Part shown: one piece after another, positions 7,200-64,000 of the stretch | Layout of the letters: every line of letters begins with the position of its first letter | Numbering within the stretch: position 1 is the stretch's first letter | NCBI RefSeq assembly: GCF_964355755.1 | Contig: NC_092673.1 | Span: 10,168,001 to 10,232,000, forward strand | Direction of reading: 5' to 3' | Source of the DNA: Antedon mediterranea | Taxonomy: Eukaryota; Animalia; Echinodermata | DNA length: 64,000 nt | Program-made: the position numbers and the translations under genes | Notes under the pieces: generated by a model | Databases searched by the model: none | What the model saw: the letters and a program-made list of their open reading frames with translations, nothing else | Told to the model about the DNA's origin: nothing

Positions 7200-7880
7200 A
7201 TTTACAACGCTGTATTTGACAAAGTTATGTGGTTCGATCATCGTCCAAAAATCAAAATGTCTTGGTGAGAGTGTCAAGGTTGGTGAAGGTCGGTAGCTCG
7301 ACCGATTCTGAAAGAATGAGTGTTAAACTGTGTATGTTCCAGACTAGCATGGCGAGCTAATTGTTTATAGCATTAGTGTGTGTTCTGCGGCCTTGGAGAC
7401 TACTGCTTCACTGGCTCTGAGGCATGCGAAGTAACATATTATGAACAAGGCTCTGTATAGGATGAATTCGTATTTGGATTTCATGCTACCTCGCATATGT
7501 CCAATTAGCGTTACAAGAATGTCGGAAGTGACCGGCGGTCTGATCGGTTTGGATGGAGAGTTCGTTTTTTGTTTCGCTACTCCTCTGCATAAATTGCTGA
7601 CTGCTGGATTTGCGGTAAGGTCTTCCATAAATGATACCCTGTGCACGAATGACACTGGGCTAAGGTAGTTTCGAATCGTGGAAATCGCCAGTGCATTTTT
7701 AGTCAGCTTACTTACATAGAGAACAATTGTCTGTGGAGTCGCTGGTAGCGGAAGGCTTAGTGATTTCCCGAATTGGTTAAAATGGTGCCATTTGCTTTTA
7801 TAGTTACTAGCGGTTCATTTACTTAATGAGTTCCACATTAGCTCTCGTGTGAGGATCTTGAGTTGTTTAGTGGTTCGAAG
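7200..7880 (-). pseudogene. Tyrosine recombinase of the retroelement, internally deleted
   Basis: STIRNYLS; RPPVT; YFACLRASE (box I Arg); FNTHSFRIGRAT (HxxR); GR*S in place of GRWS. Contains stops and a deletion between boxes I and II. Confidence 0.88.
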
Positions 7881-9200
7881 TAGATTGGTTGTAAGTGCTT
7901 TGGTATCTTTAGCGGTGTGCGGTTCATACTGTGCTCCTCTAGCATGGCCTCCGTTTCCTGAAAACGAGAAAGAGCGTCACATATCCTGTTTTGCTTACCA
8001 GGGATGTGCCTGGCTGTAAACTGAATGTTGTTTAGTAGTAACAAAAGGACGATAGCGCGAACCACTCTCATGACCTTTTCGTTTGATGACAATTTTTTGT
8101 TAAGCACATATACATCAGCTAGGTTATCACAGTGGAAAACTACATGGGTGTTGGCTAGCTGTTTTGCAAAAATCGAAAGCATGACATAGATGGGGTAAAT
8201 TTCGAGAACCATGATGTCGAACATTTTCCAAGTTTCCGGCCAGTGGCCTTGAATCCAGAACTTTTGGAAGGTCGCACCAAGTGCGGTTTTTGAGGCATCA
8301 GAGGAGAAATGTAAACGCTGCGAGTCAAATTTTTGTGGGGGTGAAAAATGGTAACGCCATTGTGTTTGCTAAGAAAGTCGGCCCAAATTTGGAGATCCTC
8401 CTTTGCTGAGTCAGAAAGGTGAATAGTTGAAAAGGGGTTAGTTAGACCGGCCGTTAGGGCATTAAGCCTTCTTAGGAACGCCAGTCCAGAGGGTATAACC
8501 CAGGTGGCAAATTGTAGCTTTTCAAAGAGATTGGGGGGCTCTCAATGTAGTTCAGTGAAGTTTTGAACTTTAAAGGGAGTAACGTAATTTTATTATCTCA
8601 GATGGAAGCCTGTCTTACATTTTCTGTAAATCAAGTTCAATACCCAGGAAGGAAATGGTGGTGGTGGGTGAAATTGTTTTGTGCGGTGCTAGAGGTATGC
8701 CACCGCGGTCAGCAAGCGCCTTGGATATCTTCAAGGAGTTCGCACACAGTTGGTGTGTGTCTTCAATGACGAGGATATCGTCTAATATTTTCACGTTATT
8801 GGGCTGTTTTAACTTTTTTATAAGGAAAAATTTCACTCCGTCAGAAAACTTATTGAATATTTGCCACGAAGATCCGCCGCCTTGGGGAAGCGTTTTATCG
8901 TAGTAATACTGGCCTAACCACGTGAAACCTGTGAGGTGATATTGGCATGGCCTCCGTTTCCTGAGTGGGATGTAAATGTATTAGTCTGTATGCGTCACTG
9001 GTGTCCGTCTTGGCCATGAATGCCGGGTGATTGTGTATGTCAATTATGTCTATTGCGTTGGCAATTGTTTCGTAATGAACTGTTATGCAAAACCCAGGGA
9101 TGTTGTGATTGACAGCGTTTGAGTCGTAGGGATAGGAGAGGTTGTGGAGGATACGACATTTTTCAGGTACGGAATTTCCGGAAGGTTGTTGATGATAGCT
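7838..9200 (-). pseudogene. Reverse transcriptase / RNase H of the retroelement, frameshifted
   Basis: KCRILHNLSYP; MAKTDTSDAYRLI; YDKTLPQG; ILDDILV; FLGIELD; SSDAS; LEIYPI; FHCDN; HIPGKQNRICDALSR. Confidence 0.9.
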
Positions 9201-9249
9201 TGGGAGTTAGTTGCTGTAAAAGCAGCCCCATGTAAGGTAGAAGCCATGA

Positions 9250-10189: not shown

Positions 10190-12310
10190 AACCAGCATGA
10201 GTCATTTAAAGAAATGCTGTACTTAGAGGAGGGTGATAAGACACCACCGCCGTATGGGGTGATAGTAGGGGGACCAGCATGAGTCATATAACCAGCATGA
10301 GTCATATAATGAATGCTGTACTTAAGAGCATGAGTGATAAAACACCGCCGTATGTGGGGGTAGTTAATGAACCAGCATAAGTAATTATGCGGTGGTAGTA
10401 GGGAAACCAGCATGAGTCATATAATGAATGCTGTACTTAAGAGCATGAGTGATAAAAACACCGCCGTATGTGGGGTGGGTAATGAACCAGCATAAGAAAT
10501 CATGTGGTGGTAGTAGGGTTAATGAACCAGCATAAGTAATTATGTGGTGGTAATAGGGGAACCAGCATGAGTCATAATATAATGAATGAACCAGCATAAG
10601 AAATTATGTGGTGGTAGTAGTCATATAATGGTAAACCAGCATAAGAAATTATGTGGTGGCAGTAGTCATATAATGGTAAACCAGCATAAGAAATTATGTG
10701 GTGGTAGTAGTCATATAATGGTGAACCAGCATAAGAAATTATGTGGTGGTAGTAGTCATATAATGGTAAACCAGCATAAGAAATTATGTGGTGGTAGTAG
10801 TCATATAATGGTAAACCAGCATAAGAAATTATGTGGTGGTAGTAGTCATATAATGGTGAACCAGCATAAGAAATTATGTGGTGGTAGTAGTCATATAATG
10901 GTAAACCAGCATAAGAAATTATGTGGTGGTAGTAGTCATATAATGTTAAACCAGCATAAGAAATTATGTGGTGGTAGTAGTCATATAATGGTAAACCAGC
11001 ATAAGAAATTATGTGGTGGTAGTAGTCATATAATGGTGAACCAGCATAAGAAATTATGTGGTGGTAGTAGTCATATAATGGTAAACCAGCATAAGAAATT
11101 ATGTGGTGGTAGTAGTCATATAATGGTGAACCAGCATAAGAAATTATGTGGTGGTAGTAGTCATATAATGGTAAACCAGCATAAGAAATTATGTGGTGGT
11201 AGTAGTCATATAATGGTGAACCAGCATAAGAAATTATGTGGTGGTAGTAGTCATATAATGGTAAACCAGCATAAGAAATTATGTGGTGGTAGTAGTCATA
11301 TAATGGTGAACCAGCATAAGAAATTATGTGGTGGTAGTAGTCATATAATGGTAAACTAGCATAAGAAATTATGTGGTGGTAGTAGTCATATAATGGTGAA
11401 CCAGCATAAGAAATTATGTGGTGGTAGTAGTCATATAATGGTAAACCAGCATAAGAAATTATGTGGTGGTAGTATTCATATAATGGTAAACCAGCATAAG
11501 AAATTATGTGGTGGTAGTATTCATATAATGGTGAACCAGCATAAGAAATTATTTGGTGGTAGTAGTCATATAATGGTAAACCAGCATAAGAAATTATGTG
11601 GTGGTAGTATTCATATAATGGTGAACCAGCATAAGAAATTATGTGGTGGTAGTAGTGAAACCAGCATGAGTCATATAACCAGCATGAGTCATATAAAGAA
11701 TGCTGTACTTAAGGGCATGAGTGATAAAACACCGCCGTATGTGGAGGTAGGTAATGAACCAGCATAAGAAATTATGTGGTGGTAGAAGGGTTAATGAACC
11801 AGCATAAGAAATTATGTGGTGGTAGTAGTGAAACCAGCATGAGTCATAAAATGAATGCTGTACTTAAGAGCATGAGTGATAAAACACCGCCGTATGTGGG
11901 GGTAGTAAATGAACCAGCATAAGTAATTATGTGGTGGTAGTATGGGAACCAGCATGAGTCATAATGAATGCTGTACGTAAGAGGATGAGTGATAAAACAC
12001 CGGCGTATGTCGGCGTATGAACCAGCATAAGCAATTTATGTGGTGGTAGTATAGGAACCAGCATGAGTCATATAATGAATGCTGTACTTAAGAGGATGAG
12101 TGATAAAACACCGGCGTATGTCGGCGTATGAACCAGCATAAGTCAATTATGTGGTGGTAGAATAGGAACCAGCATCATATCGTCATAATGAATGCTGTAC
12201 TTGGGGAAACTAGCATGAGTCATAATGAATGCTGTACTTTGGAAACCAGCATGTGTCTTAATATAATGAATGATGTACTTAGGGAACCAGCATGAGTCAT
12301 AAGATGAATG
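10190..12310. repeat. Tandem repeat expansion inside the retroelement: 45-bp core array (10586-11655) flanked by composite longer units
   Basis: AACCAGCATAAGAAATTATGTGGTGGTAGTAGTCATATAATGGT(A/G) repeated more than 20 times, near-identical. Confidence 0.95.
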
Positions 12311-47100: not shown

Positions 47101-49025
47101 GAGAGATAGATAGATCAGCGAGAGAGAGAGATAGATAGATCAGCGAGAAAGTGATAGATAGATCAGCGAGAGAGAGATAGATAGATCAGCGAGAGACAGA
47201 TAGATAGATCAGCGAGAGAGAGATAGATAGATCAGCGAGAGAGAGAGATAGATCAGCGAGAAAGAGAGAGATAGATCAGCGAGAGTGAGATAGATCAGCG
47301 AGAGAGATAGATCAGCGAGAGAGAGAAAAATCAGCGAGATAGAGATAGATCAGCGAGAGAGAGATAGATCAGCGAAAGAGAGATAGATCAGCGAGAGAGA
47401 GATAGACCAGCGAGAGAGAGATAGATAGATCAGCGAGAAAGAGGTAGATAGATCAGCGAGAGAGAGGTAGATAGATCAGCGAGAGAGAGATAGATAGATC
47501 AGCGAGAGGCAGATAGATAGATTAGCGAGAGACAGATAGATAGATCAGCGAGAGAGAGATAGATCAGCGAGAGAGATAGATCAGCGAGAGAGAGATAGAT
47601 CAGCGAGAGTGAGATAGATCAGCGAGAGAGATAGATCAGCGAGAGAGAGATAGATCAGCGAGATAGAGATAGATCAGCGTGAGATATAGATCAGCAAGAG
47701 AGAGATAGATCAGCGAGAGAGAGATAGACCAGCGAGAGAGAGATAGATCAGCGAGAGGGAGATAGATCAGCGAGAGATAGATAGATCAGCGAGAGAGAGA
47801 TAGAACAGTGAGAGAGAGATAGATCAGCGAGAGAGAGAGATAGATCAGTGAGAGAGAGATAGATCAGCGAGAGATAGATAGATCAGCGAGAGAGAGATAG
47901 ATCAGCGAGAGAGAGATAGATCAGCGAGAGAGAGATAGATCAGCGAGAGAGAGATAGATCAGCGAGAGATAGATAGATCAGCGAGAGAGAGATAGATAGA
48001 TCAGCGAGAGAGAGATAGATAGATTAGCGAGAGAGAGATAGATAGATCAGCGAGAGAGGGATAGATAGATCAGCGAGAGAGATATATAGATCAGCGAGAG
48101 GCAGATAGATAGATCAGCGAGAGACAGATTGATAGATCAGCGAGAGAGAGAGATAGATAGATCAGCGAGAGAGAGAGAGATAGATCAGCGAGAAAGAGAG
48201 AGATAGATCAGCGAGAGTGAGATAGATCAGCGAGAGAGATAGATCAGCGAGAGAGAGAGATAGATCAGGGAGATAGAGATAGATCAGCGAGAGAGAGAGA
48301 TAGATCAGCGAGAGAGAGATAGATCAGCGAGAGAGAGATAGACCAGCGAGAGAGAGATAGACCAGCGAGAGAGAGATAGATAGATCAGCGAGAGGGAGAT
48401 AGATCAGCGAGAGATAGATAGATCAGCGAGAGAGAGATAGATCAGCAAGAGAGAGATAGATCAGCGAGAGAGAGAGAGATAGATCAGCGAGAGAGAGATA
48501 GATCAGCCAGAGATAGATAGATCAGCGAGAGAGAGATAGATCAGCGAGAGAGAGATAGATCAGCGAGAGAGAGATAGATCAGCGAGAGAGAGATAGATCA
48601 ACGAGAGATAGATAGATCAGCGAGAGAGAGAGATAGATAGATCAGCGAGAGAGAGATAGATAGATCAGCGAGAGAGAAATAGATAGATCAGCGAGAGAGA
48701 GATAGATAGATCAGCGAGAGAGAGAGAGATATATAGATCAGCGAGAGAGAGAGATAGATAGATCAGCGAGAGAGAAATAGATAGATCAGCGAGAGAGAGA
48801 GAGAGAGAGATAGATCAGCGAGAGAGAGAGAGACAAATCAGCGAGAGAGAGATAGATCAGCGAGAGAGAGATAGATCAGCGAGAGAGAGATAGATCAGCG
48901 AGAGAGAGATAGATCAGCGAGAGAGAGTGATAGATCAGCGAGAGAGAGATATAGATCAGCGAGAGAGAGATAGATCAGCGAGAGAGAGATAGATCACCGA
49001 GAGAGAGATAGATCAGCGAGAGAGA
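21616..49025 (+). repeat. 27.4-kb purine-rich minisatellite (GA)n-TAGATCAGC, modal unit ~19 bp, with kb-scale internal duplications
   Basis: Uninterrupted tandem array; variable GA run length and GATA insertions. Confidence 0.98.
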
Positions 49026-50164
49026 ATAAATTTTCGCCATTTTTTGAAAAAAAATCTGATGGTCCCCAGCAGGAAAATTTTTCGAAAAATGGCTAAATTT
49101 CGACCCTTTTATTTTTTGACATAACTAATTGTTACTATGGCTCTATAAGATGATGTTAACACAATATATATGCATAAATGGCAATATTATATCATAATTA
49201 TAGAATTTTAAAAATTGGAAATTTTGGCCCTTTTTCAAAAAACTTCTTATAGTCCCCCAGAGGAAAATTTTCGAAAATTGGCAAAATTTTGACCCTTTTC
49301 TTTTTTAACATAACTAGTTACGATGGCTCTATAAGATGATGTTAACACAATATATGTCCATAAATGGCAAAATTATAGCATAATAATTTAATTTTAAAAA
49401 GTGTAACATTTTTGCCATTTTCGACCCTTTTATATTTTGACATAAGTAGTTGCTATGGCTCTATAAGATAATGTCAGCACAATATATGTGCATAAATGGC
49501 AATATTATAGCATAATTTTTGAATTTTAAAAAGTAGAAATTTTAGTCATTTTTCGAAAAAATTCCTATGGTCCCCTCCAGGGAAATTTATCGCAAAAATG
49601 GCCAAATTTTAACCCTTTTATTTTTTGACAAAACTAATTACTATGGCTCTATAAGAAGATGTTAGCACAATATATTTGCAAAAATGGCAATATTATAGCA
49701 TAATTATTGAATTTTAAAAAGTGGGAATTTTGGCAATTTTTGGAAAAAAATCCTATGGTCCCCAGCAGGGAAATTTTCGAAAATGGCCAAATTTTGATCC
49801 TTTTATTTTTTGACATAACTAGTTACTATAGCTCTATAAGATGATGTTAGCACAATATAATTATTTGCATAAATGGCAATATTATAGCATAATTTTTTAA
49901 TTTTAAACAATGGAAATTTTGACAATTTTTCGAAAAAAAAATCTTATTGGCCAAATGGCCAAATTTCGACCCTTTTATTTCTTGACATAACTAGTTACTA
50001 TGGCTCTATAAGATGATGTTACAACAATATATGCGCATAAATGGCAATATTATAGCCTATTTATAGAATTTTGAAAATTGGAAATTTTTGCCATTTTTCG
50101 AAAAAATTTTTATGGTCCCCCGCAGTGAAATTTTCGCAAAAATGGCCAAACTTCAAACCTTTTA

Positions 50165-50363
50165 TTAGTCGCGTGGACGCGACTCTACAGTTCACTATGT
50201 CGGTCGGTCTGTCGGTCTGTCTGTCGGTCCGGTATCACTTTGCGTTTTATCGCTTTTCTGTACTTTTGAACTGTTTTGATGTACAGAAAAGTTTTGAAGT
50301 ACATTACTTTTTGAAAGTTCATTTATTTCTGAGAGCACGCAACTTATTGTTGTTGGCCTTGTT
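50165..50363 (+). mobile_element. Non-autonomous Helentron/DINE-1-like (HINE) element
   Basis: 5' hairpin AGTCGCGTGGACGCGACT, (GTCK)n microsatellite, 3' subterminal inverted copy CACGCAACT then GGCCTTGTT; inserted in a T-run of the satellite with no obvious TSD. Confidence 0.7.
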
Positions 50364-50729
50364 TTTTGACATAACGAGTTACTATGGCTGTATAAGATGA
50401 TGTTAACACAATATATGTGCATAAATGGCAATATTATAGCCTAATTATAGAATTTAAAAAGGTGGACATTTTGGTCGTTTTTGAAAAAAATCGTATGGTC
50501 CCCCGCAGGAAAAAATGGCGAAATTTCAAACCTTTTATTTTTTGACATAACTATTTACTATGGCTCTATAAGTTGCTATTTACACAACATATGTGCATAA
50601 ATGGCAATATTATAGTCTAATTATTGAATTTTAAAAGGTGGAAATTTTGGTCATTTTGCGAAAAAATTCCTGTGGTCCCCCCAGGGAAATTTTCGCAAAA
50701 ATGGCCAAATTTTAACCCTTTTATTTTTT

Positions 50730-50966
50730 TATTTATTTTTTTTTTTATTTCATACTCATCCAACAGCGAGTAACCCGCAAATTACAGGATGGATAAACTA
50801 TTTAAAATTTCACAAGACAAACATATACACAAGATGCTCTACATAAACAAAGACTTATTATTAAGTCTTTGGGAGTGGAGTTGTAAATTGTCATGAGAAA
50901 AAATCCCTGACATATGACAGGACTTGAACCCAGGACCCTTAGATTGGTAGCCAAGCATCATAACCA
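50730..50966 (-). mobile_element. tRNA-derived SINE-like insertion with A-rich tail
   Basis: Minus strand reads TGGTTATGATGC...GGGTTCAAGTCC (B box at 50930-50920), then a body and AAATAAAAAAAAAAA; it interrupts the satellite. Confidence 0.65.
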
Positions 50967-51005
50967 TTTTTTCGAAAAATGGCCAAATTTAGACCCTTTT
51001 ATTTT

Positions 51006-53313
51006 AATAGTCTATTTATATGAAATGAATGATCAATCAATGAAAAATAATGCCATGGAACTTTGTTTCTGATTTTAAAAAAGGTCCACTTGTTTAGGCC
51101 TGACATTTACAACCCTCAAAATATCTCACTTTCAAAAACAATATTTATTTTCTATTAAAAAAAAAAGAAAAAAGATATTCGTAGAGGTTCGAACCCACTA
51201 CTGCGAGAACTCAAACCTGAGCATTACCGGTTACGCCATAAACCAGTAGATGACAGAAGAGCTGATAACAGTCTATTTATATGAAATGAATGATCAATCA
51301 ATGAAAAATAATGCCATGCAACTTTTTTTCTGATTGAAAAAAATGTCCACTTGTTTAGGCCTGACATTTACAACCCTCAAAATATCTCACTTTCAAAAAA
51401 AATATTTATTTTCAATTTAAAAAAAAGGGAAAAGAAATATCCCTAGAGGTTTGAACCCACTACTGCGAGCACTGAAACTTGAGCATTTCAAAAACAATAT
51501 TTATTTTAAATAAAAAAAAAAAAAAAAAAAAAAATATCGGTAGAGGTTCGAACCCACTAGCTTAGTGAGAGCACTCAAACTTGAGCATTACCCGTTACGC
51601 CACAAACCAGTAGATGACTGAAGAGCTGATAATAGTCTATTTATATGAAATTAATGATCCATCAATGTAAAATGATGTTATGCAACTTTGTTTCTGATTT
51701 AAAAAAAGGTCCACTTGGTTAGGCTTGACATTTAAAACCATACAAATATCTCACTTTCAAAAACAATATTTATTTAAAAAAAAAAAAAATGAAAAAAAAT
51801 ATTCCTAGAGGTTCGAACCCACTACTGAGAGAACTCAAATCTGAGCATTACCGGTTACGCCACAAACCAGTAGATGAGTGAAGAGCTGATAATAGTCTAT
51901 TTATATGAAATGAATTATCCATCAATGTAAAATGATGTTATGCAACTTTGTTTCTGATTTAAAAAAAGGTCCACTTGTTTAGGCCTGACATTTACAACCC
52001 TCAAAATATCTCACTTTCAAAAACAATATTTATTTTCAATTTAAAAAAAAAAAGAAAAAAAATATCCCTAGAGGTTCGAACCCACTACTGAGAGAACTCA
52101 AACCTGAGCATTACCGGTTACGCCACAAACCAGTAGATGAGTGAAGAGCTGATAATATTCTATTTATATGAAATGAATAATAAATCAATGTAAAATGATG
52201 TTATGCAACTTTGTTTCTGATTTAAAAAAAGGTCCACTTGGTTAGGCTTGACATTTAAAACCATAAAAATATCTCCCTTTAAAAAACAATATTTATTTTC
52301 AAATAAAAAAAAAAGAAAAAAATATCCCTAGAAGTTTGAACCCACTATTGAAATCACTCAAACCTGACCATTACCCGTGACGCCGCAAACCAGTATATGA
52401 CTGAAGAGCTGATAATAGTCTATTTATATGAAATGAATGATCAATCAATGAAAAATAATGCCATGCAACTTTGTTTCTGATTTTAAAAAAGGTTCACTTG
52501 TTTAGGCCTGACAGTTGCAACCCTCAAAATATCTCACTTTCAAAAACAATATTTATTTTCAATTAAAAAATAAAGAAAAAAAATACCTGTATAGGTTCGA
52601 ACCCACTACTGAGAGCACTCAAACCTGAGCATTACTCGTTACGCCACAAACCAGTAGATGATTGAGGAGCTGATAATAGTCTATTTATATGAAATGAATG
52701 ATCAATCAATGAAAAATAATGCCATGCAACTTTGTTTCTGATTTTAAAAAAGGTCCACTTGTTTAGGCCTGACATTTACAACACTCAAAATATCTCACTT
52801 TCAAAAACAATATTTATTTTCAATTAAAAAAAAAAAATATCCGTAGACGTTCGAACCCACTAGTGAGAGCACTCAAACTTGAGCATTACCCGTTACGCCA
52901 CAAACCAGTAGATGACTGAAGAGCTGATAATACTCTATTTATATGAAATGAATGATCAATCAATGAAAAACAATGCCATGCAACTTTGTTTCTGATTTAA
53001 AAAAAGGTCCACTTGTTTAGGCCTGACATTTACAACACTCAAAATATCTCACTTTCAAAAACAATATTTATTTTCAATTTAAAAAAAAGAAAGAAAAAAA
53101 AAATTCGTAGAGGTTCGAACCCACTACTGCGAGAACTCAAACCTGAGCACTACCAGTTACGCCAAAAACCAGTAGATGAGTGAAGAGCTGATAATAGTCT
53201 ATTTATATGAAATGCATGATCAATCAATGAAAATAATGCCATGCAACTTTGTTTCTAATTTTAAAAAAGGTCCACTTGTTTAGGCCTGACATTTACAACC
53301 CTCAAAATATCTC
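51006..53313 (-). repeat. Tandem array of ~262-bp units, each with tRNA-type Pol III A and B boxes and an oligo-T run
   Basis: B-box-like GGTTCGAACC or variants at ~51186, 51448, 51545, 51810, 52073, 52333, 52594, 52848 and 53112; minus-strand A box TGGCGTAAC(C/G)G upstream in most units; T-runs ~10 nt downstream. Confidence 0.85.
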
Positions 53314-53350
53314 AGATATTATACATTTTTTTTTTGTTATCATGTTTTTG

Positions 53351-53364
53351 TATATAATATATAA
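53351..53364 (+). promoter_or_regulatory. Candidate TATA box for the CARD/PolB unit
   Basis: TATATAATATATAA 65-78 bp upstream of the ATG at 53429; the AT-rich context makes a chance match possible. Confidence 0.3.
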
Positions 53365-53428
53365 TTTTCTTTATTTTCATTCGTGGCTTTCAACATCGAC
53401 ATAACCTTGTCTCCTCTGTGCTGAAGGA

Positions 53429-54208
53429 ATGGAAGAAAGTTACTTTGAAGGCGAACCGTGGCTGACGAAACATCACAAACTCCTCACCACGTCCATGAAC
53501 CTGTCGGCGGTACTCGAAGCATTGGTCGTCAGAGAAATATACTTGCGGGAATTCGAGAACTTTGTACTGCGTATGGACAGAGAGAAAGGGGTTAAAGAGA
53601 ATCGGATGGCCTATTATCTCATCGACGACATTCGAAGGTATCCGAAATTGCACGCTAACGGAGCTTTCGTGGATTCTCTTAAATGCGCCGGCCACCACGA
53701 TCTTGTTGTCGCTTTGAGAAAAGGAGCGAAAACAACTTTGAACACGCCGTTCGAGAAAGATCATCCTTTTTCTTCCTTCAAGTCGGCGATGGTCCGTCTT
53801 TCGCACTACGAAATCGATCAAACATACAAGAAACGATTGCGAGAGAGGAACGTTCTTCTGAAACGCATCGACCGGTTCGCTGAAACGATAAATCTGGAGG
53901 CCACCGTCAAACAAATGGTGGTCAGAAGAATTTACAAACCCGAATACGCAAATTTCCTCCTCGACGGTGACAGACAGAGAAACGTTTACTTTTTCCTCAA
54001 CAACGTTCGGAAGCATCAAGACGAGTCCGGTTACAAAGCTTTCGTCGAGTCTCTCAAAGCAACCGGTCAACACGAACTCGCATCGACTTTGGAGAAAAAA
54101 AAATACAAAAAGAAAAAACAGTCTGTCGAAGTTCCAGACTTCGGAATTTTGTCCGATCAAAAGGCGCAATGTTCGTGTATCTGGCACGTGTCAAGTATTC
54201 CAAGATAA
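53429..54208 (+). CDS. Tandem death-fold (2x CARD-like) protein, 259 aa, intact ORF
   Basis: Two ~90-aa internal repeats ending GAFVDSLKCAGHHDLVVAL and GYKAFVESLKATGQHELASTL, typical of CARD helices 5-6; basic C-terminal tail. Confidence 0.75.
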   Translation: MEESYFEGEPWLTKHHKLLTTSMNLSAVLEALVVREIYLREFENFVLRMDREKGVKENRMAYYLIDDIRRYPKLHANGAFVDSLKCAGHHDLVVALRKGAKTTLNTPFEKDHPFSSFKSAMVRLSHYEIDQTYKKRLRERNVLLKRIDRFAETINLEATVKQMVVRRIYKPEYANFLLDGDRQRNVYFFLNNVRKHQDESGYKAFVESLKATGQHELASTLEKKKYKKKKQSVEVPDFGILSDQKAQCSCIWHVSSIPR

Positions 54209-56464
54209 ACGGAAAGTTGTACCTCTACGGCAGAGATCCGGAAGGAAACAGGCTGTCGTTGAAGACGAGGAAAGTGAAATTCACGTCGTACGTCGAAGAC
54301 GAAACGGACGGAGAATGCATCATGCGCAGAGGTGACGATCCAATTTCTTGCGCCAAGAAGTACAGGAGGCCCACGGCCGACGAAAGAAACGGCATCAAGG
54401 TCGACAACCTCTTCGGCAACCTCCCCTCGTCCGTGGGCGACCTGGACGCTCAGTGTGCGGTCGGGGTTCACGGATGCGCTTGGCACAGTTACTCCGAAGA
54501 CAAAGACGGCAACGTCGAAGGCTTGACGTACGACGAGCAGATCCACTTGGAACGACAGAACGTTCACCCGGTGCGACTGTCGGTGTTGTGCGTAGTTCTC
54601 AGGTGGGACGTGAACGGTCGAATAATTTCGGTGATGCTGTCCGACGGAAAGAGACTGCACGGCGAAAATGCGGAGATCGACACGCTGTCGGAAATCGCAA
54701 AGTCGATCGAATCTGCCGACGTGTTCGTGTATCACAGTGGTCGGGTCAAGGACAGCATCGTCGCCAGATGTCGGGTGTGCGAGGTACCCCTTGCCGTAGA
54801 CGGGTTCCCCGTGTGCTTGGACACTTCGAAACACGTACGGTCGCCGGCGGGCGGCGACAACGACTCCGTCTACGATTACGTACATCGGTTACGAATCTTG
54901 TCACGAGCTAGCGGCGAGCTAGTCGGCGAAGAAGCTAGACGACGACGTTTGCGTGCTGGAACGCTACGTGTCGGAGGTGGAAGCGAAAAAATTGGTCGAA
55001 ATCGAGACGAACTTGTCCAGAATAGTGGGAAGGTTCCCCAACGGATCGTCGACCGGCGTCCTTTCGTCGGTGCTGTGCAGAGAAGCGCAGCGTCAGCGTG
55101 TGGTGTTTCCGAGGAGCAATGCGGACCCGAAGCCCAAAGGAAGCGTCAACGAAGACGAAACGTGCAGAGGAGGCCTGGTGCTGGACACCGTGTCCGGTAT
55201 TCACAGAGACGTCGACGTGTACGACTTTCAGTTTTGCTATCCGAGGTTCATCATCGACAAAAACGTGGACAAGTCGACGGCTCTCGAAGACGGCTCTTTC
55301 GTCGACGCCGAAGTACGCGAAGGTCTGCTTCCGTCCGTCATGAAAAGACTGGTGTCGGCTAGAGAACAAAAAAACATCACTCCCCAGAACTCCGCCGTGT
55401 ACAAACAAGCGGCCAACGCATGCGTCGGATTTCTGTGCACGTCTGGCAAGAAAAGCCTTTACAACCACGTGACGGAAAAGTGCAGGGAACAACTGAACGC
55501 GCTAAAAAATTGCGCCGAAGAAAACGGTGCTCGGGTGCTGTACGGCGACACCGACTCGTTGTTTTTGGACATAGTTCCAGGCGGGAGACAGGAGCTGGAA
55601 GAGCAATTCGCCCGAGTCTTGGGCGAAAGAAGCTTTCAAAGGTTCAAACACAGGGAGACGCTTTGCGGCTTGCTGCTGACGGACAAGAAGAAAAGGTATG
55701 CGTGTCTCCATGCCGACGGGAGGGTGAGCACCACAGGGATGACGAGGCCCGGCGTCGAAAAATTCGCGTCTCGACTGGAACAGGTCATGATCGACATAGC
55801 CTTGAGGATCGGAGATAGCAATACGGCGGCCGACCGTTGCGTAAAAGAATTTTGTCGAGTCGTCAACGAACTGAAGGACGACGAAGCGATCGAGGTCCAA
55901 GGCGTTGTTCGAAAGGGCAAAAACGAGACGAACTCTCACAGATTCAAAAAGAGTTGCGCCGCCCTCGGATGCTACAGACAGACGCCTTACCACCTGAAAC
56001 ACGGAGGCGTTTCCTATCATCCGCTGTCGCATTCGTGCATCCATCCGACCGTGGAAGTCGAGCACTTGATCCGAGAGCTGAAACAATTTTGCGAACTCGA
56101 CAGAAGCAACGTTTTGAGCGTAATCGTTTGGAACGCGGAAGCAGGGGACTGCCGAACGAGCATATTGCATCGGTTGAAGGAGATCAAAGATACTTTGGAA
56201 AAGATTCCGACGCACCTGCCCCGGAAGGAGATGCAGCTCTGCGGAGGGTGGAATTTGTTCAGTGGCAGTTGCTGTTCCACGGTGAAGGTGTCGACCGCCG
56301 AAGAAGAGCGACAGGTTAGAAAAAACGAACCGGTCTTTCGAAGCGTAGATCTCGAAAACGGGGAGAGGAGATTATTCATCGTAAGATGTACAAACGCTTT
56401 GTGTTGCGACGCACACCGATTCTGGGGAAAGGCATGGAACTACACAGCAAAAGATGAAGCGTAA
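54169..56464 (+). pseudogene. polB: Family B DNA polymerase (RNA-primed type, ~765 aa) split by one frameshift near 54880-54925
   Basis: LYLYGRDPEG N-terminal motif; GGLVL; motif A DFQFCYP; GLLPSVMKRLV; motif B KQAANACVG; motif C YGDTDSLF; KKKRYAC. Confidence 0.9.
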
Positions 56465-56469
56465 AATAA

Positions 56470-56560
56470 TCCAAAAAAAATAAAAAAATAAATAAAAAAT
56501 AGTTTTAAGTCTACTTTTGAAATAAAAGAAAAAAAGAAATGGTTGAAGGAAATAAAAACA
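56470..56560 (+). terminator. A-rich spacer between convergent genes with several AATAAA polyadenylation signals
   Basis: Multiple AATAAA hexamers right after the polB stop codon. Confidence 0.45.
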
Positions 56561-56617
56561 CAAAAACCAAAAATATTGTTTAACAGTTTTTCTTGTATTC
56601 TTTTGTTTGTCAATTTG

Positions 56618-57805
56618 TCAAAGTATTGCGCATCCGCAAATCACGGTCACGTCCAGATCTTTTACGCCGAGCAGTAGATTCCCTGAAACAAACGACGAAT
56701 CGAGAAATTTGGGTGGTCGTTCGTCGATCTCGTCGTTCATGCATCGTTTCAACCACTTCCTTCTTATCTTGTTTTCGTCAACGGCGAGATCGTCTTCGAC
56801 AGGCTCTAGGTGTTCTCCTAGAAAAAGCGAAATCACCTTTTCCTTGCATTTCCTGTCCGTTTCGTGCAACACGGTCGATTCGGTTATGCAAGAAGGCAAC
56901 GTGGTCCCGGTCGCTCTCAACCGTTTCCAAACGCTTGGCAGGAACACGTCCGAGTCCGTCGTGAAAGCGGTGTGTCTTTCTTTGACCTCGGTGAGTAGCC
57001 TCAGAGGACGGACGAATTAGGCCGAGACGGAATTGAAATATTTTCCGTACGCCCACCAGTCTCTCAACGGGTTCGTTGCTTCTTCCACAACGTCCTCGAC
57101 GAATTCGAAGAATTCCACTTCCGCCAACTCGAAATTCAGGATGCTTTCCGTCGTTTGCGATCCTTCGAAAACAAGACGGGAAGATCTATCGGCCAGACCT
57201 ACCATCAGTCGTTGCGAGGTTTCCAGGGTTAAAAGGGCAGAGAAGAAGTCTGCGTTAAGCCATCCGATCTGGCGTCTGTCGTGCCCGACGAACATCGGAG
57301 GTGGGCCCAAATGCACGCCGCTTCTGCCTACGCCACCTTCCGTCTCGGCCAAATTGTCGAGGCAGGTTTCGACTGCGCAAGCGACGTTCTTCGGACACAA
57401 CGGTAGCGATCTGTTGTACGACAGACACAGATGCCTCAATATTATCATCAGAAGCTCGAAGTAAGGGTTGTCGGATCCGTAACGCCTTCCGTCGAAGTAC
57501 CACTGGAACGTTGGAGAGGGGTTGCCGCTTCTCACAAACACGCTCCAATCGTCCAGAGACTGTAGAGTTCGGGAAAGCGTCGTGTAGTCTGTGTAATCTT
57601 CGATTTTAGTCAACCAGAGACGACCGGTCAGATAACGCCTTCCGTAATCGTTGCCCTCCTCACCGCCACCGTCGTCGTCGTAGTCGTCGTAGTCGTACGA
57701 CTTGAAATGTCTAGGGTCGACTGTCATTATCTTTGACCACCTGACCTGCACGGCAGGTTGAGGCAATCCCAACTTCAACACCGGTCTCTCTTTGAACAAG
57801 TCCAT
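56618..57805 (-). pseudogene. BRO1/BROX-like domain protein (~395 aa) with one in-frame TAA at 57019-57017
   Basis: ORFs 57017..57880 and 56618..56947 share a frame and are separated by a single stop; likely start MDLFKE at 57805. PTFQWYFDGRRYGSDNPYFELLMII resembles the Bro1 F-x-W...D-x-x-FE motif. Confidence 0.5.
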
Positions 57806-57911
57806 AAGAAAGATTCTTGTGAAACATAACAACAACAACAACAACAACAACAACAATAAAAAAATAAATAAAAAACACATATATGTATATAAATTTCAAT
57901 TTCCTTTTATT

Positions 57912-58139
57912 TCAAACGACCATCATTTTCTTAAATTTAGAAGATAAAGTATTTTCACTTTCTGCTTTGCAATCTATCAATCTCTCTATTTTGTCGATCA
58001 CTTCGCATAAGTCTTTTTTGTTTTTTTCATCCACATCGCCGTCGTTGCCACTGTGTTGCTTTTTTTTTTTAAGGCGTAGCACTTTCAGAACCCTTTCCAC
58101 GTGGAAGACCGGCATTTCGATGTATATGTTTGTGCTCAT
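57912..58139 (-). CDS. Small basic/coiled-coil hypothetical protein, 75 aa
   Basis: ATG in good Kozak context; GC-richer core between AT-rich spacers; KKKK possible NLS. Confidence 0.45.
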   Translation of the reverse strand: MSTNIYIEMPVFHVERVLKVLRLKKKKQHSGNDGDVDEKNKKDLCEVIDKIERLIDCKAESENTLSSKFKKMMVV

Positions 58140-58613
58140 TCTTGTGTTGTTTTTTTTCCACTTTCTTTTCTCCTTTTCTGTGAATTTTGTAAATATTATT
58201 CTTTTCTTCCAAGTCTATTTCTGTATTAATATACTGTAAAATGTTACTATTTAATCAGTTATAGTTGGTTTTCTAAAATGTTTTTTTTTTTGCCCCTGCC
58301 TATTTCGAGTCGTTTTTCTCCGTCTGGAAAGAATCGCCAGCTTTTTCGGCATGATTCCTTAGTCCGTTATTACTTGTAAAACAATCTTTCTTCTTTTTTT
58401 TTTCTTTTCGGACTCTTCTTCGTCCACGACCTCGACAGGTTCAGCAACATTTCCAACGTTCTGAAAGTTCTGAAAGGCCTTGATCGGTCGTCTTCTCATC
58501 TACAAAGAAGAGTTTCTAAAGTCCAAATACTTGATCTTAATGTTTTTCACAGGTAAGAACTCATCGGGAGAATCTGATATTACAAAAAAAAAAAAAAAAA
58601 AAAAAAAATTTTT

Positions 58614-59365
58614 TCACTTTGTGACGTACCGTTTTCGTTTGCAACCGGACCTTTTGCAGCAGATCGGACGGTTCGACGGACTTATCTCCAGCAGTGTTCG
58701 ATCGTTCAACGGTTCGCCACAATCCAGCTCCTCTGCAATGCACTTTCGGGACAGTTCTGAATCGAATTTGTCGACGTGCCTTAATATCATGTCGAGGAAC
58801 GTGCGACCGGTTTGCTAGAGAGAAGCGACCGTCTGAAACTGAGTGTTGCAGCAAAGCGAAGGAGAAAACAACTGGAACTTTCTCGCTCGTCCGTCCACGT
58901 GGTACGGGATGGTGAACTTGACCGACGGAAACAGATCGTTGCTGTCGACCGTCAAAGATTCTAAAAGCTTAAGTCGTTCGACTACGTCCAGCACGCCGTA
59001 CATCCTACCTGCATGGTTCAGGTTGTTTGTCGAAATGTGCATAGGTACGCTCTTGTATTTTCTCTTATCGCCTGTTGCAGTTGGTAGTTGAGCGAAGTTT
59101 TCGTTCTCACGTTGAAGTTACCCCTCGTCGTGATGTTCGTCTATCCTGTGGAAACGAAATACAGCGCGGTCGATCCTCTTTTCAGAGGCGATTGAAATTC
59201 TATCATGTCGTCTTGCAATTTCGTGCCCCTCATGTGGATGGATTGCGCCGTCTCGCGCGTGTCGTACGGATATCGATGCACGATGTTTTGCGAAGACACC
59301 ACGTTCACCAGGAAGAAGTTCATCGACGCTCTGTTGCAACTGGATTGAACGGTTGTGTACGTCAT
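58614..59365 (-). pseudogene. Divergent TATA-binding-protein-like gene (two stops, one frameshift)
   Basis: Reconstructed LVNVVSSQNI...STALYFVSTG*TNIT...ISTNNLNHAG...NDLFPSVKF...KFQLFS...TFLDMIL is collinear with both TBP saddle repeats. Confidence 0.65.
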
Positions 59366-60057
59366 GATTGTTTCGTATTTTTCCTCGCCGTCTGTTGCAA
59401 TCGGGGTGGTTTTTTCACACCTTTTTTCAGAACCTGGATCCTCCGGATGCTGTTGTCCACCTTCACCAGCACGTCTCCGTTGGAGGTGCGTTGATGTTCC
59501 GAAAACATGGAGGCCAGAGACTGACGTTCCCGGTCGTTGTACGTGGCAAACACGACCGTTTCTGCGAATAACGACAGCAGATCGAGCGCCGATGTGAGGA
59601 ACGACATCGGCAGATCGGGAGCGTCGACCATGAGCTCCACGTGATCGACAAAGGTGGTTTTCGCCGCTTGTCCTTTTTCGTTCTGTAACCGTCGAACCTT
59701 AAAGTCTCCCACCACGATGCCCTCTTCTCTGTAGAGTAAGTGAACAAGGTTTTTCGTGGAAAACACCACCGCCAAACCGTCAAACGACTCGACTCTGGTC
59801 CTATGATCGCCTTAGTAGACGACGTCATCGACGTAAAACTTTCTCTTCTCCGGAATCGGGTTCAGGTTGTTCCTCAGCCGGTTCGTGAACCGTTCGCCGA
59901 GCACGTTCCGGAACCGATCCAACAAGGAAACGGGATCGGACGGCTTCGAGGAGAGAGCTTTGCAGATCCTCGGATCCGAGTTGATGTACGTGTACCAGAA
60001 CGTCGCCTCCTGTTCCGTCAGGCCGCCTCTCAGTTCCACCAGCTGCCGACAAAACAT
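59362..60057 (-). pseudogene. Hypothetical protein (~231 aa) with one in-frame stop at 59814-59812
   Basis: ORFs 59812..60057 and 59362..59775 are in the same frame; its stop overlaps the TBP-like start (ATGA). Confidence 0.6.
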
Positions 60058-60885
60058 TCAATTCACCAGGGAAAAAAAGTCATGCGCCCTCTATCGGTTG
60101 CTACCTTCAATATCTGCTCAGCGAAGCGTGCATAGTAACCGGAAGTGATGTTTTTTTCAAAACATTATTTCCGTAATCTTTAATCAACGAATGAGAAGCC
60201 TTCAAATTGTTTTTCTCATGAATAATTCATATTTAGTTGAAGATAAGGTATGGAAGAACCATGTGACGATCTCTTTTAAACGAAACGGCCATTTTAAGAC
60301 AGTCTAGTAAACCAACGATTTCGAGAGTAAGTTTTTAGATATTTAACAGTTTTTGAGGATCGTTTTTTTGTGTAATTTTGCACGCATATAAAATCAAAAC
60401 CTAATTTTTTAAGAAGTAAATGCAAACAAATATAATAACTATATACTATTTATATTTGTTACAAAAAAAATCACGCTGGTGTTATGTCCCATTTTTTTTT
60501 AAATGAAGCTGAAAATTGGTATATAATCCACGTGGTTAGTATTTCGGCCTAGCACTCTATATCACATGTCTAGGCCTAAACATAGGGCAAATCCAGCAGC
60601 AATGTAAATACGAAGTTCAAGATCAATAAAGAGACTTTGTATAAATATTAACATAATGTTATTATTGTAATTTTTATGCAATAATAATAAAAACATGTTA
60701 TATATAGGCCTTTTAGTCATAAACCATTATTATTACAATTATTATAGCCTACTAACTAAGATAATAGACCTCCAGGCCTAACCTAGTTAGACAATTATGT
60801 AGTAGGTATATTATTAATATAGTATAGACAATATAAAAAGGTTACTGTTTTGATCTGAGATTTTCACTAATTTTTGCCTACTATT

Positions 60886-63538
60886 TTATTTAAATTTCAG
60901 CTGCTTTCGGCTTTTTGGGTGTTCGACCTCCTTGATTATTTCAGGGACTGTGGACATGGTATGCGCTTTCATAATAGACGTCGTTCTTGAATTTTCATTA
61001 CGCATACCCCAAAATGACCGTTTCCTTCTGTTTATTGAGGCATGTATGGACTCTCCTCCCTGCTCTCCTAGCAGTCCTAACCCAACTCCCCACTTCTTAA
61101 TTGATGGCAGCACATGATCCTCAAGTAAATGGAGCTTAGGTGATATTCTCTCATTGTATTGGCGAAAGTGGTCCATAAAAGCCATTATTTTTTTCATCTG
61201 TATAAATATAAACGCAAATTATTTTAAATATAATTGATTACTTTTGTTCTTGTTCCAAAATTTTACAACTTGTAAAAAAATCTAGTTGATACATCTATAG
61301 TGGTTTGAAATAAAGAAAAATCATACCAATTGATTGAATGTCATCGGTTGTTAACACCCGGCAATGGTCAATACTGTTGTGTACTGCTGAATATTTAGAG
61401 AGTAAGTTTATGTATTTTACTTCAATCTCTGCTGCCTTCGCCATTATCAGTTGTCCCTTACTAATTGAAAAGAGATCTGCCTCTATACTGACCACTCTAG
61501 AAATGTTCTTGCATAGATCATCTATGACGTCAGACTTTTATTTAAAAAAAATTATAATACAGTATTGTAATAGTAGTAGTAATGTAAATAAGGATCATGT
61601 ATATAAAGAGGCCTACTACTATTATGTATTAGAATTAGAATACATAATTCTACATACAGTTAATGTGCATACCTTTAGTGCCTTGTGCACATGATTGCCA
61701 TTAAAAGATTTCCCATGAAATGGCTGTCGTTTAATACCATGATAATGGAGTGTCTGGTCCATAGATGCTACTATTGGACCAGTCCCAAACCTCAGTTGTA
61801 CGTCCATTTGCCTTTCCTATAGAAAAATACTTATGCAGGTAATTATGTTTGCTTTCATAGGTACAGAATAACCATGTGAGGTTCTAAGGCATCGATTTTT
61901 AGGGTAAGTAACAAGTAAAAACAAACAATATAATTATGAATGAAATATTGACGTACTGTTTCTGTCAACTCATCTTGAAGCTTTACTAGTTCATGCAATT
62001 GTTTAGACATTTTTGCCTTAGCATCCCCACTTTGATTTTTTAAATACAATAAAGGGATATCGTCTTCTATTTTCTCAATTTGTAGTAAAAGTTGATCTTT
62101 TTCTCTTGCCAATTCTGGAATTAAAAACAATTTAATTTATTTTTATTTATTTATTGAATTTTCTGCCATATACAATACAACGAAGACAAAACAAATATAA
62201 AAAGCAAGGAAAGACAACAAATAAAAACGAAAGGAGAGAATAAATAAATTATACCTTCTTGCTTCATAGCCACTGCCTTCACTAACTTATCAAACTTTGA
62301 TTTTGCTTGATCATCATCATAATCATCTTCTTCTGTACGATTTTTTCTTTTCATCAATATAGCAACATCCATTTTGTGGCATTCGCTTTCCAGCATCTCA
62401 TACAGTTTTTTGAATATCCCTAAAGAGATATGGAGGGTAGGGACGGACACCTGTAAAGATAATTATAAAAAAATACTTACGACATTTAAGATTATTTACT
62501 TGGTATTTAGAGTACAAGATAAAAATTACTTACTTGCTCAATTTCAATATCAATCATAGGCTCCCATATTACACTAAGTGATACATTCTTGGACATTTCC
62601 TTTTTCCCTCCATGTTCCTCAAATGCCTTTAAGTTTTCAGCCAATGACCTCAGTGTCCTACACTCTCCATTAATAGACTTTGTTTGCTGTTCCTCTTTGG
62701 ATTTTTTACAAAATAGGCAACAATACCGGCCTAAAACAAATATAATTTACTGTTAATATTATTTCACATTCTATTTTTTGTTTTGATAGAAAAAACATGT
62801 ATTGTTTTTTTATATTATGTTTTTTTACTACTTACAGTTTGGTCCATTGATTCCGTAGATTTTGATTAGAAAATCATAGTCACCAAAACAAAACATTCGC
62901 AGATTATACTCTCTGTGAAAGAAAAAAAATCCACATTTATAGATAAAGATAAGTGTATTTGTTACTCTGTTGTAATACATAGTATTTTATCCATGATAAA
63001 TGAAACAACATAACTACCTCCACTGTAGACCATTCAGTCCCATAACTTGCTCCGTCACTCTTGGTAATGTTTGCGACAAGTTATAGACGCTGTCCTTTGC
63101 ATGGAACATCAATACTACAACCACATTTCTGACTGCATTCGGATCAGCAACACTTACAATTTGTATTTCTGCCTTAAAACTCTCACCACCATGATCTCCG
63201 CCAAACTTCAGCCATATCTCATTGCCGTTGTATATTTTAAGTTTATTTTGCCTGTAAAATATAATAACATCGTTATTTTTTTTTGACAGGAACATACAAA
63301 ATGTGTGTACAGAATTGAGAAGATAAAATTATAAACTTACTGGCGGTACTCATCAAGGTAATTAAAAACCAAAGCCTTTATATCTGGTATGTGAACCACA
63401 GCTACCTCTTTCAAACTGAGACCTTCGTGCCGACTGGAATTAAACAACAGTAGCTCATTTTTTGATTTCAACTCGCAAAGCAGTTCCTTCTGGCATTCTC
63501 TCATCCTCTTCTCTGAAGGTATTAGTCCTGGAACATAC
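60886..63538 (-). CDS. Multi-exon Chapaev/CMC-like DDE transposase (RAG1/Transib-related fold); 5' part not resolved
   Basis: GGDHGGESFK; FGDYDFL; CCLFC; PTLHISLG; FNGNH; KLHLLEDH; GEQGGESIH. GT-AG exons approx. 63538-63341, 63251-63018, 62912-62836, 62730-62534, 62450-62255, 62114-61957, 61816-61673, 61534-61327 and 61197-60886; possible 1-bp homopolymer frameshift at the start of the last exon. Confidence 0.8.
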
Positions 63539-64000
63539 CTGAAAGTATAATAATATACTGTATATTTACAGTACTGTACTGTATATAATTGTTTATTCAT
63601 ATAAATACAGTAGGTATTACTTAAAGCTCAGGTACAGGCATGAATTTTAAATACAATATCTGGTTAATTGTACATAAATCAAATATTAGTAACAGAAATC
63701 AAGACGAAAAAACATGAATTTCCCTTAATATGGTCAAATACAAAATTTTGAAAAATTCTGCCATAAAAACCTGGAAGACTTTTTTTTCAGTAGTTAGGTA
63801 GTTTAACCTAATGTAATAACATATCTGGTGACTCCCTAGAAGGTGAAAAAAGATGGTGGATATACGGTGGATAATTTTTGCTATAGCATGAAAATAAAAA
63901 TCTGAAGTTGATTAAAAATACCAGAAATGTAAAATTCAAGTTATATTACCTATATTTAGTCATCTGATAACATTTTTTACCACACCGTTTATTTTTCATA

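Follow-up and report, generated by a model that had tools for sequence, protein, structure and literature searches.

We analysed a 64,000-nucleotide stretch of the genome of the echinoderm Antedon mediterranea (RefSeq assembly GCF_964355755.1, contig NC_092673.1, positions 10,168,001 to 10,232,000 of the forward strand; hereafter the window). Towards its right-hand end lies an intronless island of about 7 kb (roughly 53330..60400) whose genes, closely spaced between about 53.4 and 60.2 kb, are laid out convergently: two on the plus strand face the remainder on the minus strand across an A-rich gap that contains AATAAA motifs. The CpG observed-to-expected ratio of the island is 1.3-1.6, against 0.3-0.7 in the adjacent flanks. 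One of the two plus-strand genes, running from an ATG at 54169 to a stop at 56464 (765 codons in two frames), encodes a family B DNA polymerase (PolB), and it is this polymerase, its relatives and the island around it that we describe here.

The PolB gene is split between two reading frames. Its 5' piece (54169..54882, ~238 aa) covers the N-terminal and exonuclease-fold domains, the latter without the canonical Exo I and Exo II carboxylates, and is 48% identical to residues 1-234 of an intact sister protein, P0001 (E = 2e-70). The 3' piece (54923..56464, ~513 aa to 56461) comprises the palm, fingers, thumb and a C-terminal cysteine module, matches the Pfam family DNA_pol_B (PF00136, E = 1.5e-14) and is 44% identical to P0001 over 502 columns. 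Between them lies the frame-break region (54883..54922), and a tblastn search with P0001 switched frame at about 54870-54925. An earlier sequence-only reading of this locus is borne out, which had drawn a single PolB gene between these start and stop codons with one frame break near 54880-54925. Identity between the window copy and P0001 is 60% in the palm and fingers and 40% in the exonuclease domain; that the palm and fingers are best conserved is what would be expected of a working polymerase.

The catalytic aspartates of motifs A and C are retained, as the sequence-only reading had stated. Motif A reads DFQFCYP (55223..55243, plus strand), keeping the catalytic Asp and the Tyr position of the steric gate, and motif C, YGDTDS (55541..55558), is intact. 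Motif B, KQAANACVG (55403..55429), has no aromatic residue before the Gly. At the Exo II position stands ADVFVYHSG (54715-54741), and profile alignment places non-acidic residues at both exonuclease motifs (VLCVVLRW/VLYLSIRL at the DIE of Exo I, YHSGRVK/HHGEWVK at the N..FD of Exo II), in agreement with the degenerate exonuclease noted earlier. A profile-profile comparison with 74 archaeal and bacterial PolBs gave a probability of 100 and was colinear from the N-terminal domain to the thumb. The hallmarks of RNA/DNA-primed PolBs are all present, namely the motif A Asp, KxxxNxxxG, the DTD of motif C and the N-terminal-exo-palm-fingers-thumb layout. Motifs A and B are 57-60 residues apart, compared to 67-102 in the outgroups, and motifs B and C 46 compared to 50-51; since these spacings are shorter, there is no room for protein-priming insertions (TPR1/TPR2). 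Indeed, no such insertion was found, with spacings below those of archaeal PolBs and a colinear profile alignment, as the earlier reading had also concluded.

The relatives of the gene separate what is shared from what has decayed. A word-based protein search from the window PolB returned 92 proteins, headed by P0001 (738 aa, intact, from an ENA contig; 417 bits) and a gene model of Anneissia japonica (312 bits), the next match scoring 61 bits. The A. japonica cluster (at least 90% identity) holds five gene models (XP_033123481.1, XP_033122522.1, XP_033114483.1, XP_033116595.1 and XP_033097587.1), which are 43-49% identical to the window 3' piece and have the same NAC(I/V)G, YGDTDS and exonuclease degeneration. 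They are annotated as 'DNA polymerase delta catalytic subunit-like' or 'DNA polymerase II-like'; those called delta-like appear to be misnamed, and by these data none is a delta orthologue. When 1.84 billion representatives were searched exhaustively by profile, 3,307 matches reached E ≤ 0.001, with P0002 alone below 1e-30. Further members were found among the best 150 of these 3,307 matches: P0102, an N-terminal fragment at 40% identity, and the deep relatives P0107 (841 aa) and P0117 (815 aa) at ~25%. No family member was found in IMG/VR, where the matches were generic PolBs of 20-36% identity, and none was found in JGI metagenomes. Four PolBs with inteins came up in a search for longer homologues, but they do not belong to the family, and a match over 74 columns at 28% identity (L001) was put down to chance.

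The aromatic residue of motif B is absent from all nine family sequences that cover the site (NACVG, NACIG, NAYIG or NSCIG), compared to Tyr or Phe there in 86 of the 87 outgroup motifs found. Family members that include an N-terminus are without the exonuclease motifs: the patterns of Exo I and Exo II, absent from the window copy and P0001, are present in 69 and 64 of the 74 outgroups, respectively. P0107 and P0117 retain the Exo I Asp alone (LVFDVSI in P0107), which suggests that exonuclease loss was gradual within the clade. Four of the 74 outgroup PolBs (P0004, P0010, P0042 and P0073) also have neither pattern, so the clade is not alone in having lost them. Motif A in the sisters reads DFKSYYP, DFRSAYP or DFKSAYP, that is SYYP or SAYP with one SYCP; the A. 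japonica models have SYYP, unlike the FCYP of the window, which belongs either to its lineage or to this one copy. Thus, of the two palm-motif departures picked out in the earlier reading, the NACVG-type motif B without an aromatic residue is clade-wide and FCYP is absent from the sisters. No intact sister with canonical motifs was seen. Because a non-canonical motif B and a degenerate exonuclease are also seen in sisters that are intact, these do not reflect post-insertion decay, and on the aligned sequences the odd motifs are mostly features of the clade.

The frame break tells a different story. Parts of the island were found in eleven sequencing runs from four organisms, three with small shares, and no RNA run was listed as sharing the stretch. 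Run X3 contributed 164 contigs over the island (57 at 99% identity or more, 70 at 95-99%, 27 at 90-95% and 10 below 90%), its main contigs having a depth of about 1,050-1,350, which is not a copy number. In run X6, from another organism, one contig of depth 42 spans the whole PolB gene with 49 differing letters over 2.4 kb. The main contigs of both runs carry a small indel relative to the window at the PolB break (54883..54922), and both also differ from the window at 57019, within the in-frame stop of a downstream gene, ORF3; the two lesions are therefore private to the window copy. Among the relatives, then, the motif substitutions are mostly shared and the frameshift is not. Contigs that vary this widely could come from a repeat family or from a viral population.

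We next turn to the origin of the clade, for which the sequence-only reading had offered a virus-captured Pol alpha derivative or a new PolB clade. Three features had been taken there as recalling Pol alpha, all on the plus strand: GGLVL (55169-55183), the KKRYA-like motif LLLTDKKKRYACL (55670-55708) and the cysteine-rich C-terminus. The first two proved generic, with a G[GA]xV-type motif in 68 and KKRYA in 67 of the 74 archaeal and bacterial PolBs. The tail contains cysteine stretches at 56240 (CGG), 56267 (SCC) and 56384-56407 (RCTNALCC). Its conserved core is a module of ~75 aa (56267..56420), predicted to bind zinc, whose common pattern in the window, P0001, P0107 and P0117 is CC or CxxC and then LF(V/I)xxC-x4-C; the conserved cysteines are the CC (CxxC in the deep relatives) and the C-x4-C, and the first Cys of CGG varies among close sisters. 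Compared with the zinc domain of Pol alpha this tail gave no Pfam or PDB match and an hhalign probability of 1%, leaving a 'C..P.C' echo at E = 0.045, so that the third feature, too, is a weak argument for Pol alpha. PF08996 (the C-terminal CysA/CysB three-helix family) and PF12254 (the N-terminal region of Pol alpha) had no match in the family, and the first residues of P0001 already belong to the N-terminal domain of PolBs.

The best match in sequence, profile and structure is to archaeal PolB3 (Pyrobaculum calidifontis, PDB 5mdn) and bacterial Pol II, which share the compact size and colinear domains. At 22-25% identity these enzymes nevertheless mostly keep the exonuclease motifs and the motif B Tyr/Phe, and they have no C-terminal module. 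Pol alpha shares with the family an exonuclease inactive by motif, a cysteine-bearing tail and a core profile identity of 31%, the highest among the five groups compared, although the family is about half its length and Pol alpha keeps SLYP and an NSMYG-type motif B. One may imagine that a virus captured a host Pol alpha, which then lost the N-terminal region together with most of the C-terminal domain and whose exonuclease was dead from the start (for the inactive exonuclease of Pol alpha, see PMC7544198). Searched with the family profile, yeast Pol alpha ranks second at 61 bits, behind archaeal B3 (105) and ahead of yeast Pol delta (34), but human Pol delta (40) outscores human Pol alpha (33). 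A Pol alpha zinc finger occurs in 8 of the 23 representative matches, picked for length, that were checked with Pfam. Profile scores were 340 for B3, 305 for Pol II, 289 for Pol alpha, 213 for nucleocytoplasmic large DNA viruses (NCLDV) and 196 for herpesviruses, the first three sets having been picked by similarity to the query. The Exo I Asp of P0107 and P0117, a sign that the loss proceeded stepwise among clade members, also speaks against an exonuclease that arrived dead. Capture from Pol alpha would be compatible with the explanation that we favour, and we give it about one chance in four in our weighing of the data.

Phylogeny groups the family as one clade. All trees were quick searches on sets of 24 and 43 rows, built without nudivirus, mirusvirus, malacoherpesvirus, mininucleovirus or Pol zeta sequences, and P0109 was dropped from the larger set by the motif filter. 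In the 43-row maximum-likelihood tree the four family rows form one clade on a long branch (Shimodaira-Hasegawa-like approximate likelihood ratio test, 99). This clade lies outside a 10-row Pol alpha group, 8 rows of which are Pfam-labelled, and outside the herpesvirus/NCLDV group. Approximately unbiased (AU) tests on the 43 rows, which include the deep relatives, gave p = 0.46 for joining the family to Pol alpha and p = 0.29 for joining it to the delta-like sequences; on 24 rows, joining to B3 had p = 0.22. A rejection of family plus herpesvirus/NCLDV in the 24-row set (p = 0.022) failed to hold with more taxa (p = 0.29), so that in the larger set the AU test rejects neither joining. Of the two origins first offered, the new clade gains support and that from Pol alpha is neither supported nor rejected. 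Judged from sequence, the family is likely to be one distinct and undescribed PolB clade. No description of it was found by title or abstract start, a search outside which subscription papers and Repbase largely lie, and there is no such group among the PolB clade definitions in the parts of PMC7544198 covered here.

The structural comparison gave a similar picture. An AlphaFold2 model of the natural protein P0001, made from a mostly archaeal 88-row alignment that biases fold ranking, has a mean predicted local distance difference test (pLDDT) score of 75 and the full PolB architecture (Z 19-22). Over residues 1-660, archaeal B3 had the highest VIA-align Z-score (22.3), followed by yeast Pol delta (21.5), Escherichia coli Pol II (21.2), Xenopus Pol alpha (20.8) and herpes simplex virus 1 (20.0); as these tie across PolB groups, Pol alpha is not singled out. 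The tail is modelled as a small sheet and a helix with a pLDDT of about 70-80, and lies outside all listed matches, which end at or before residue 666.

Among viral structures, the top Foldseek match in BFVD is the polymerase of Carcinus maenas virus 1 (CmV1; 827 aa, E = 3.7e-20), a member of the Mininucleoviridae and thus a compact, diverged PolB from a virus of a marine invertebrate. Mininucleoviruses encode two PolBs, of which the second is diverged (PMC6960288). The island could accordingly be part of a bigger DNA virus, with the PolB as its accessory, diverged second polymerase instead of the replicase of a small element. The contig that carries P0107 measures up to 37.9 kb, and no other replication gene is recognisable in the island, both of which would suit such a fragment. 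The match, to one or other of the two CmV1 polymerases, is, however, only 15% identical and barely ahead of unrelated viral PolBs (an unnamed entry at 4.2e-20, a granulovirus at 8.9e-19 and a halovirus at 1.4e-18). No NCLDV core gene was found in the island, nor any family member in IMG/VR. A larger virus is a possible but doubtful source, at slightly better odds than capture from Pol alpha.

Taken together, we consider it likely that the window holds a frame-broken copy of a compact PolB, predicted to be primer-dependent, non-proofreading and probably of low fidelity, on a 7-kb virus-like island, from a distinct and likely undescribed clade. Several points weigh against this. The trees give the clade no firm position among PolBs, the structural ranking carries the archaeal bias of its alignment, and contig depth, as said, gives no copy number. 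Polymerase activity and low fidelity are predicted from sequence, and low fidelity in particular is something we infer. Sequence-level searches of Pfam, PHROGs, PDB and Atlas recognised no major capsid protein, packaging ATPase, helicase, primase (D5 primase-helicase included) or integrase among the island open reading frames (ORFs). As these searches brought up neither a capsid nor a helicase or integrase, the label 'virus' rests on composition, layout and a weak CARD match, and we class the island as likely to be an unclassified virus-like element.

That CARD match comes from ORF1 (53429..54208, plus strand, 259 aa), which overlaps the PolB start and contains two internal repeats. Its halves are 36% identical (E = 3e-17) and Pfam CARD_2 matches at E = 0.003, under the cut-off, a weak hint that it may be a twin CARD-like gene. 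In runs X6 and X9 the contigs pass over 53503-54052, most of ORF1, which is therefore a variable part of the element. On the minus strand, ORF3 (56618..57805, ~390 aa) is an orphan with an in-frame stop at 57017-57019 and no usable match, Atlas included. It is followed by a small unassigned ORF of 76 aa (57912..58142, minus) and by ORF4 (58560..60057, minus, ~500 aa), an orphan with a stop and indels in the window copy. ORF4 has no homologue for residues 1-231 and no match in Pfam or PDB, and other runs have extra letters within its region. Domain matches to Ig_3, RHS and GldM were dismissed as noise.

Beyond the island, a DUF1280 transposase gene (60886..63630, minus strand, PF06918 E = 9e-13) contains introns and runs towards the island; DUF1280 corresponds to the Chapaev transposase (PMC3985635). 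The setting recalls Teratorn, in which a viral-type PolB region likewise lies beside a cut-and-paste transposase. Teratorn is a 180-kb element with herpesvirus genes (PMC10175614), compared to an orphan island of 7 kb here. By analogy, the island and the transposase might form one composite, self-synthesising cut-and-paste element. The transposase gene and ORF4 share a strand, with ~0.8 kb between the end of the former and the start of the latter, a 260-bp tandem array adjoins the other end of the island, and the high X3 contig depth runs on to 60400, the end of the compared stretch. The region is repeat-dense, however, so that adjacency is a weak sign, and the introns and host-like CpG depletion of the transposase gene are unlike the island. 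In X3 and X6, moreover, contigs match from 60054 rightward, beside the ORF4 start codon, with other sequence leftward and varied junctions at 60054-60400, so in other copies the stretch upstream of ORF4 may stand before different genes. A search of 49000-64000 showed no terminal inverted repeats. We regard a composite element as improbable.

Other integrated elements offer partial parallels. Polintons, adintoviruses and pipolins are also PolB-bearing, multi-copy and integrated, Polintons in animal genomes, but their PolBs are protein-primed or primer-independent, whereas the window PolB is without priming insertions and has both motif C Asp residues. Absence of the first of these is a trait of the primer-independent piPolBs (PMC7544198). 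Neither an integrase nor a capsid gene was recognised in the island. An integrated herpesvirus has been described in a lancelet (PMC12373286). To our knowledge, multi-copy PolB elements of animals use protein-primed enzymes, as in Polintons, or are large herpesvirus or nimavirus insertions.

The remainder of the window looks like animal DNA, with a minisatellite, tandem arrays, a retroelement relic and the intron-bearing transposase gene. A 27-kb minisatellite (21616-49025) is built of 1,368 copies of a 19-bp purine-rich unit, and clusters of a 187-bp repeat lie on both sides of it in apparently opposite orientations. At 10577-11656, 24 copies of a 45-bp unit (96% match) carry long open frames on both strands and are probably a minisatellite, not a gene. 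At 7365-9206 on the minus strand, broken reverse transcriptase/RNase H frames adjoin a tyrosine recombinase-like frame, with a weak RVT_3 match as their only one; we liken this relic to the DIRS type. The array adjoining the island (50938-53314) consists of about nine 260-bp units, each with GGTTCGAACCC, which we take to resemble a tRNA B-box, although ARAGORN found no tRNA in the window, these units included. Rfam gave no match in 50000-64000. An assembly error that joined symbiont or contaminant DNA to such a setting would account for the archaeal character of the best matches outside the family and for a composition unlike the flanks. Several disabling lesions private to the window copy, multiple copies in the annotation of another animal, poly-A-rich intergenic stretches with AATAAA, and the presence of the stretch in runs of more than one organism all argue against it, making a mis-join very improbable.

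On our preferred reading, of a compact PolB carried by a virus-like element, the enzyme would replicate the element on whose island it sits. Its palm aspartates would elongate a primer that host primase or a gene of the element provides, as there are no protein-priming insertions, and priming and unwinding would depend on the host or on unrecognised genes of its own. The kept motif A Tyr would select dNTPs as a steric gate, and intact members would have no 3'-5' editing. Mutants of the RB69 polymerase show how the base-pair pocket can be loosened; here, the lost motif B Tyr and the altered motif A Leu position may loosen the pocket around the nascent base pair and lower fidelity. The cysteine module would bind zinc and dock a partner, and the twin CARD-like protein could dampen host death or antiviral signalling as a decoy. 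The element would have entered the animal germline and multiplied, after which the window copy decayed. More speculatively, and with rather long odds against it, the whole could represent a new class of small self-synthesising DNA elements or viruses in animal genomes, on the scale of about 10 kb, with a primer-dependent, proofreading-free mutator PolB in place of a protein-primed one and with a CARD decoy, possibly mobilised by a Chapaev transposase.

To conclude, the loss of proofreading and of the motif B Tyr across members that are ~25% identical would amount to a natural test of the fidelity trade of a replicative PolB. The clade may also serve as a marker gene for finding unclassified DNA viruses or elements of animals. 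An intact natural member, P0001, exists and is open to assay.

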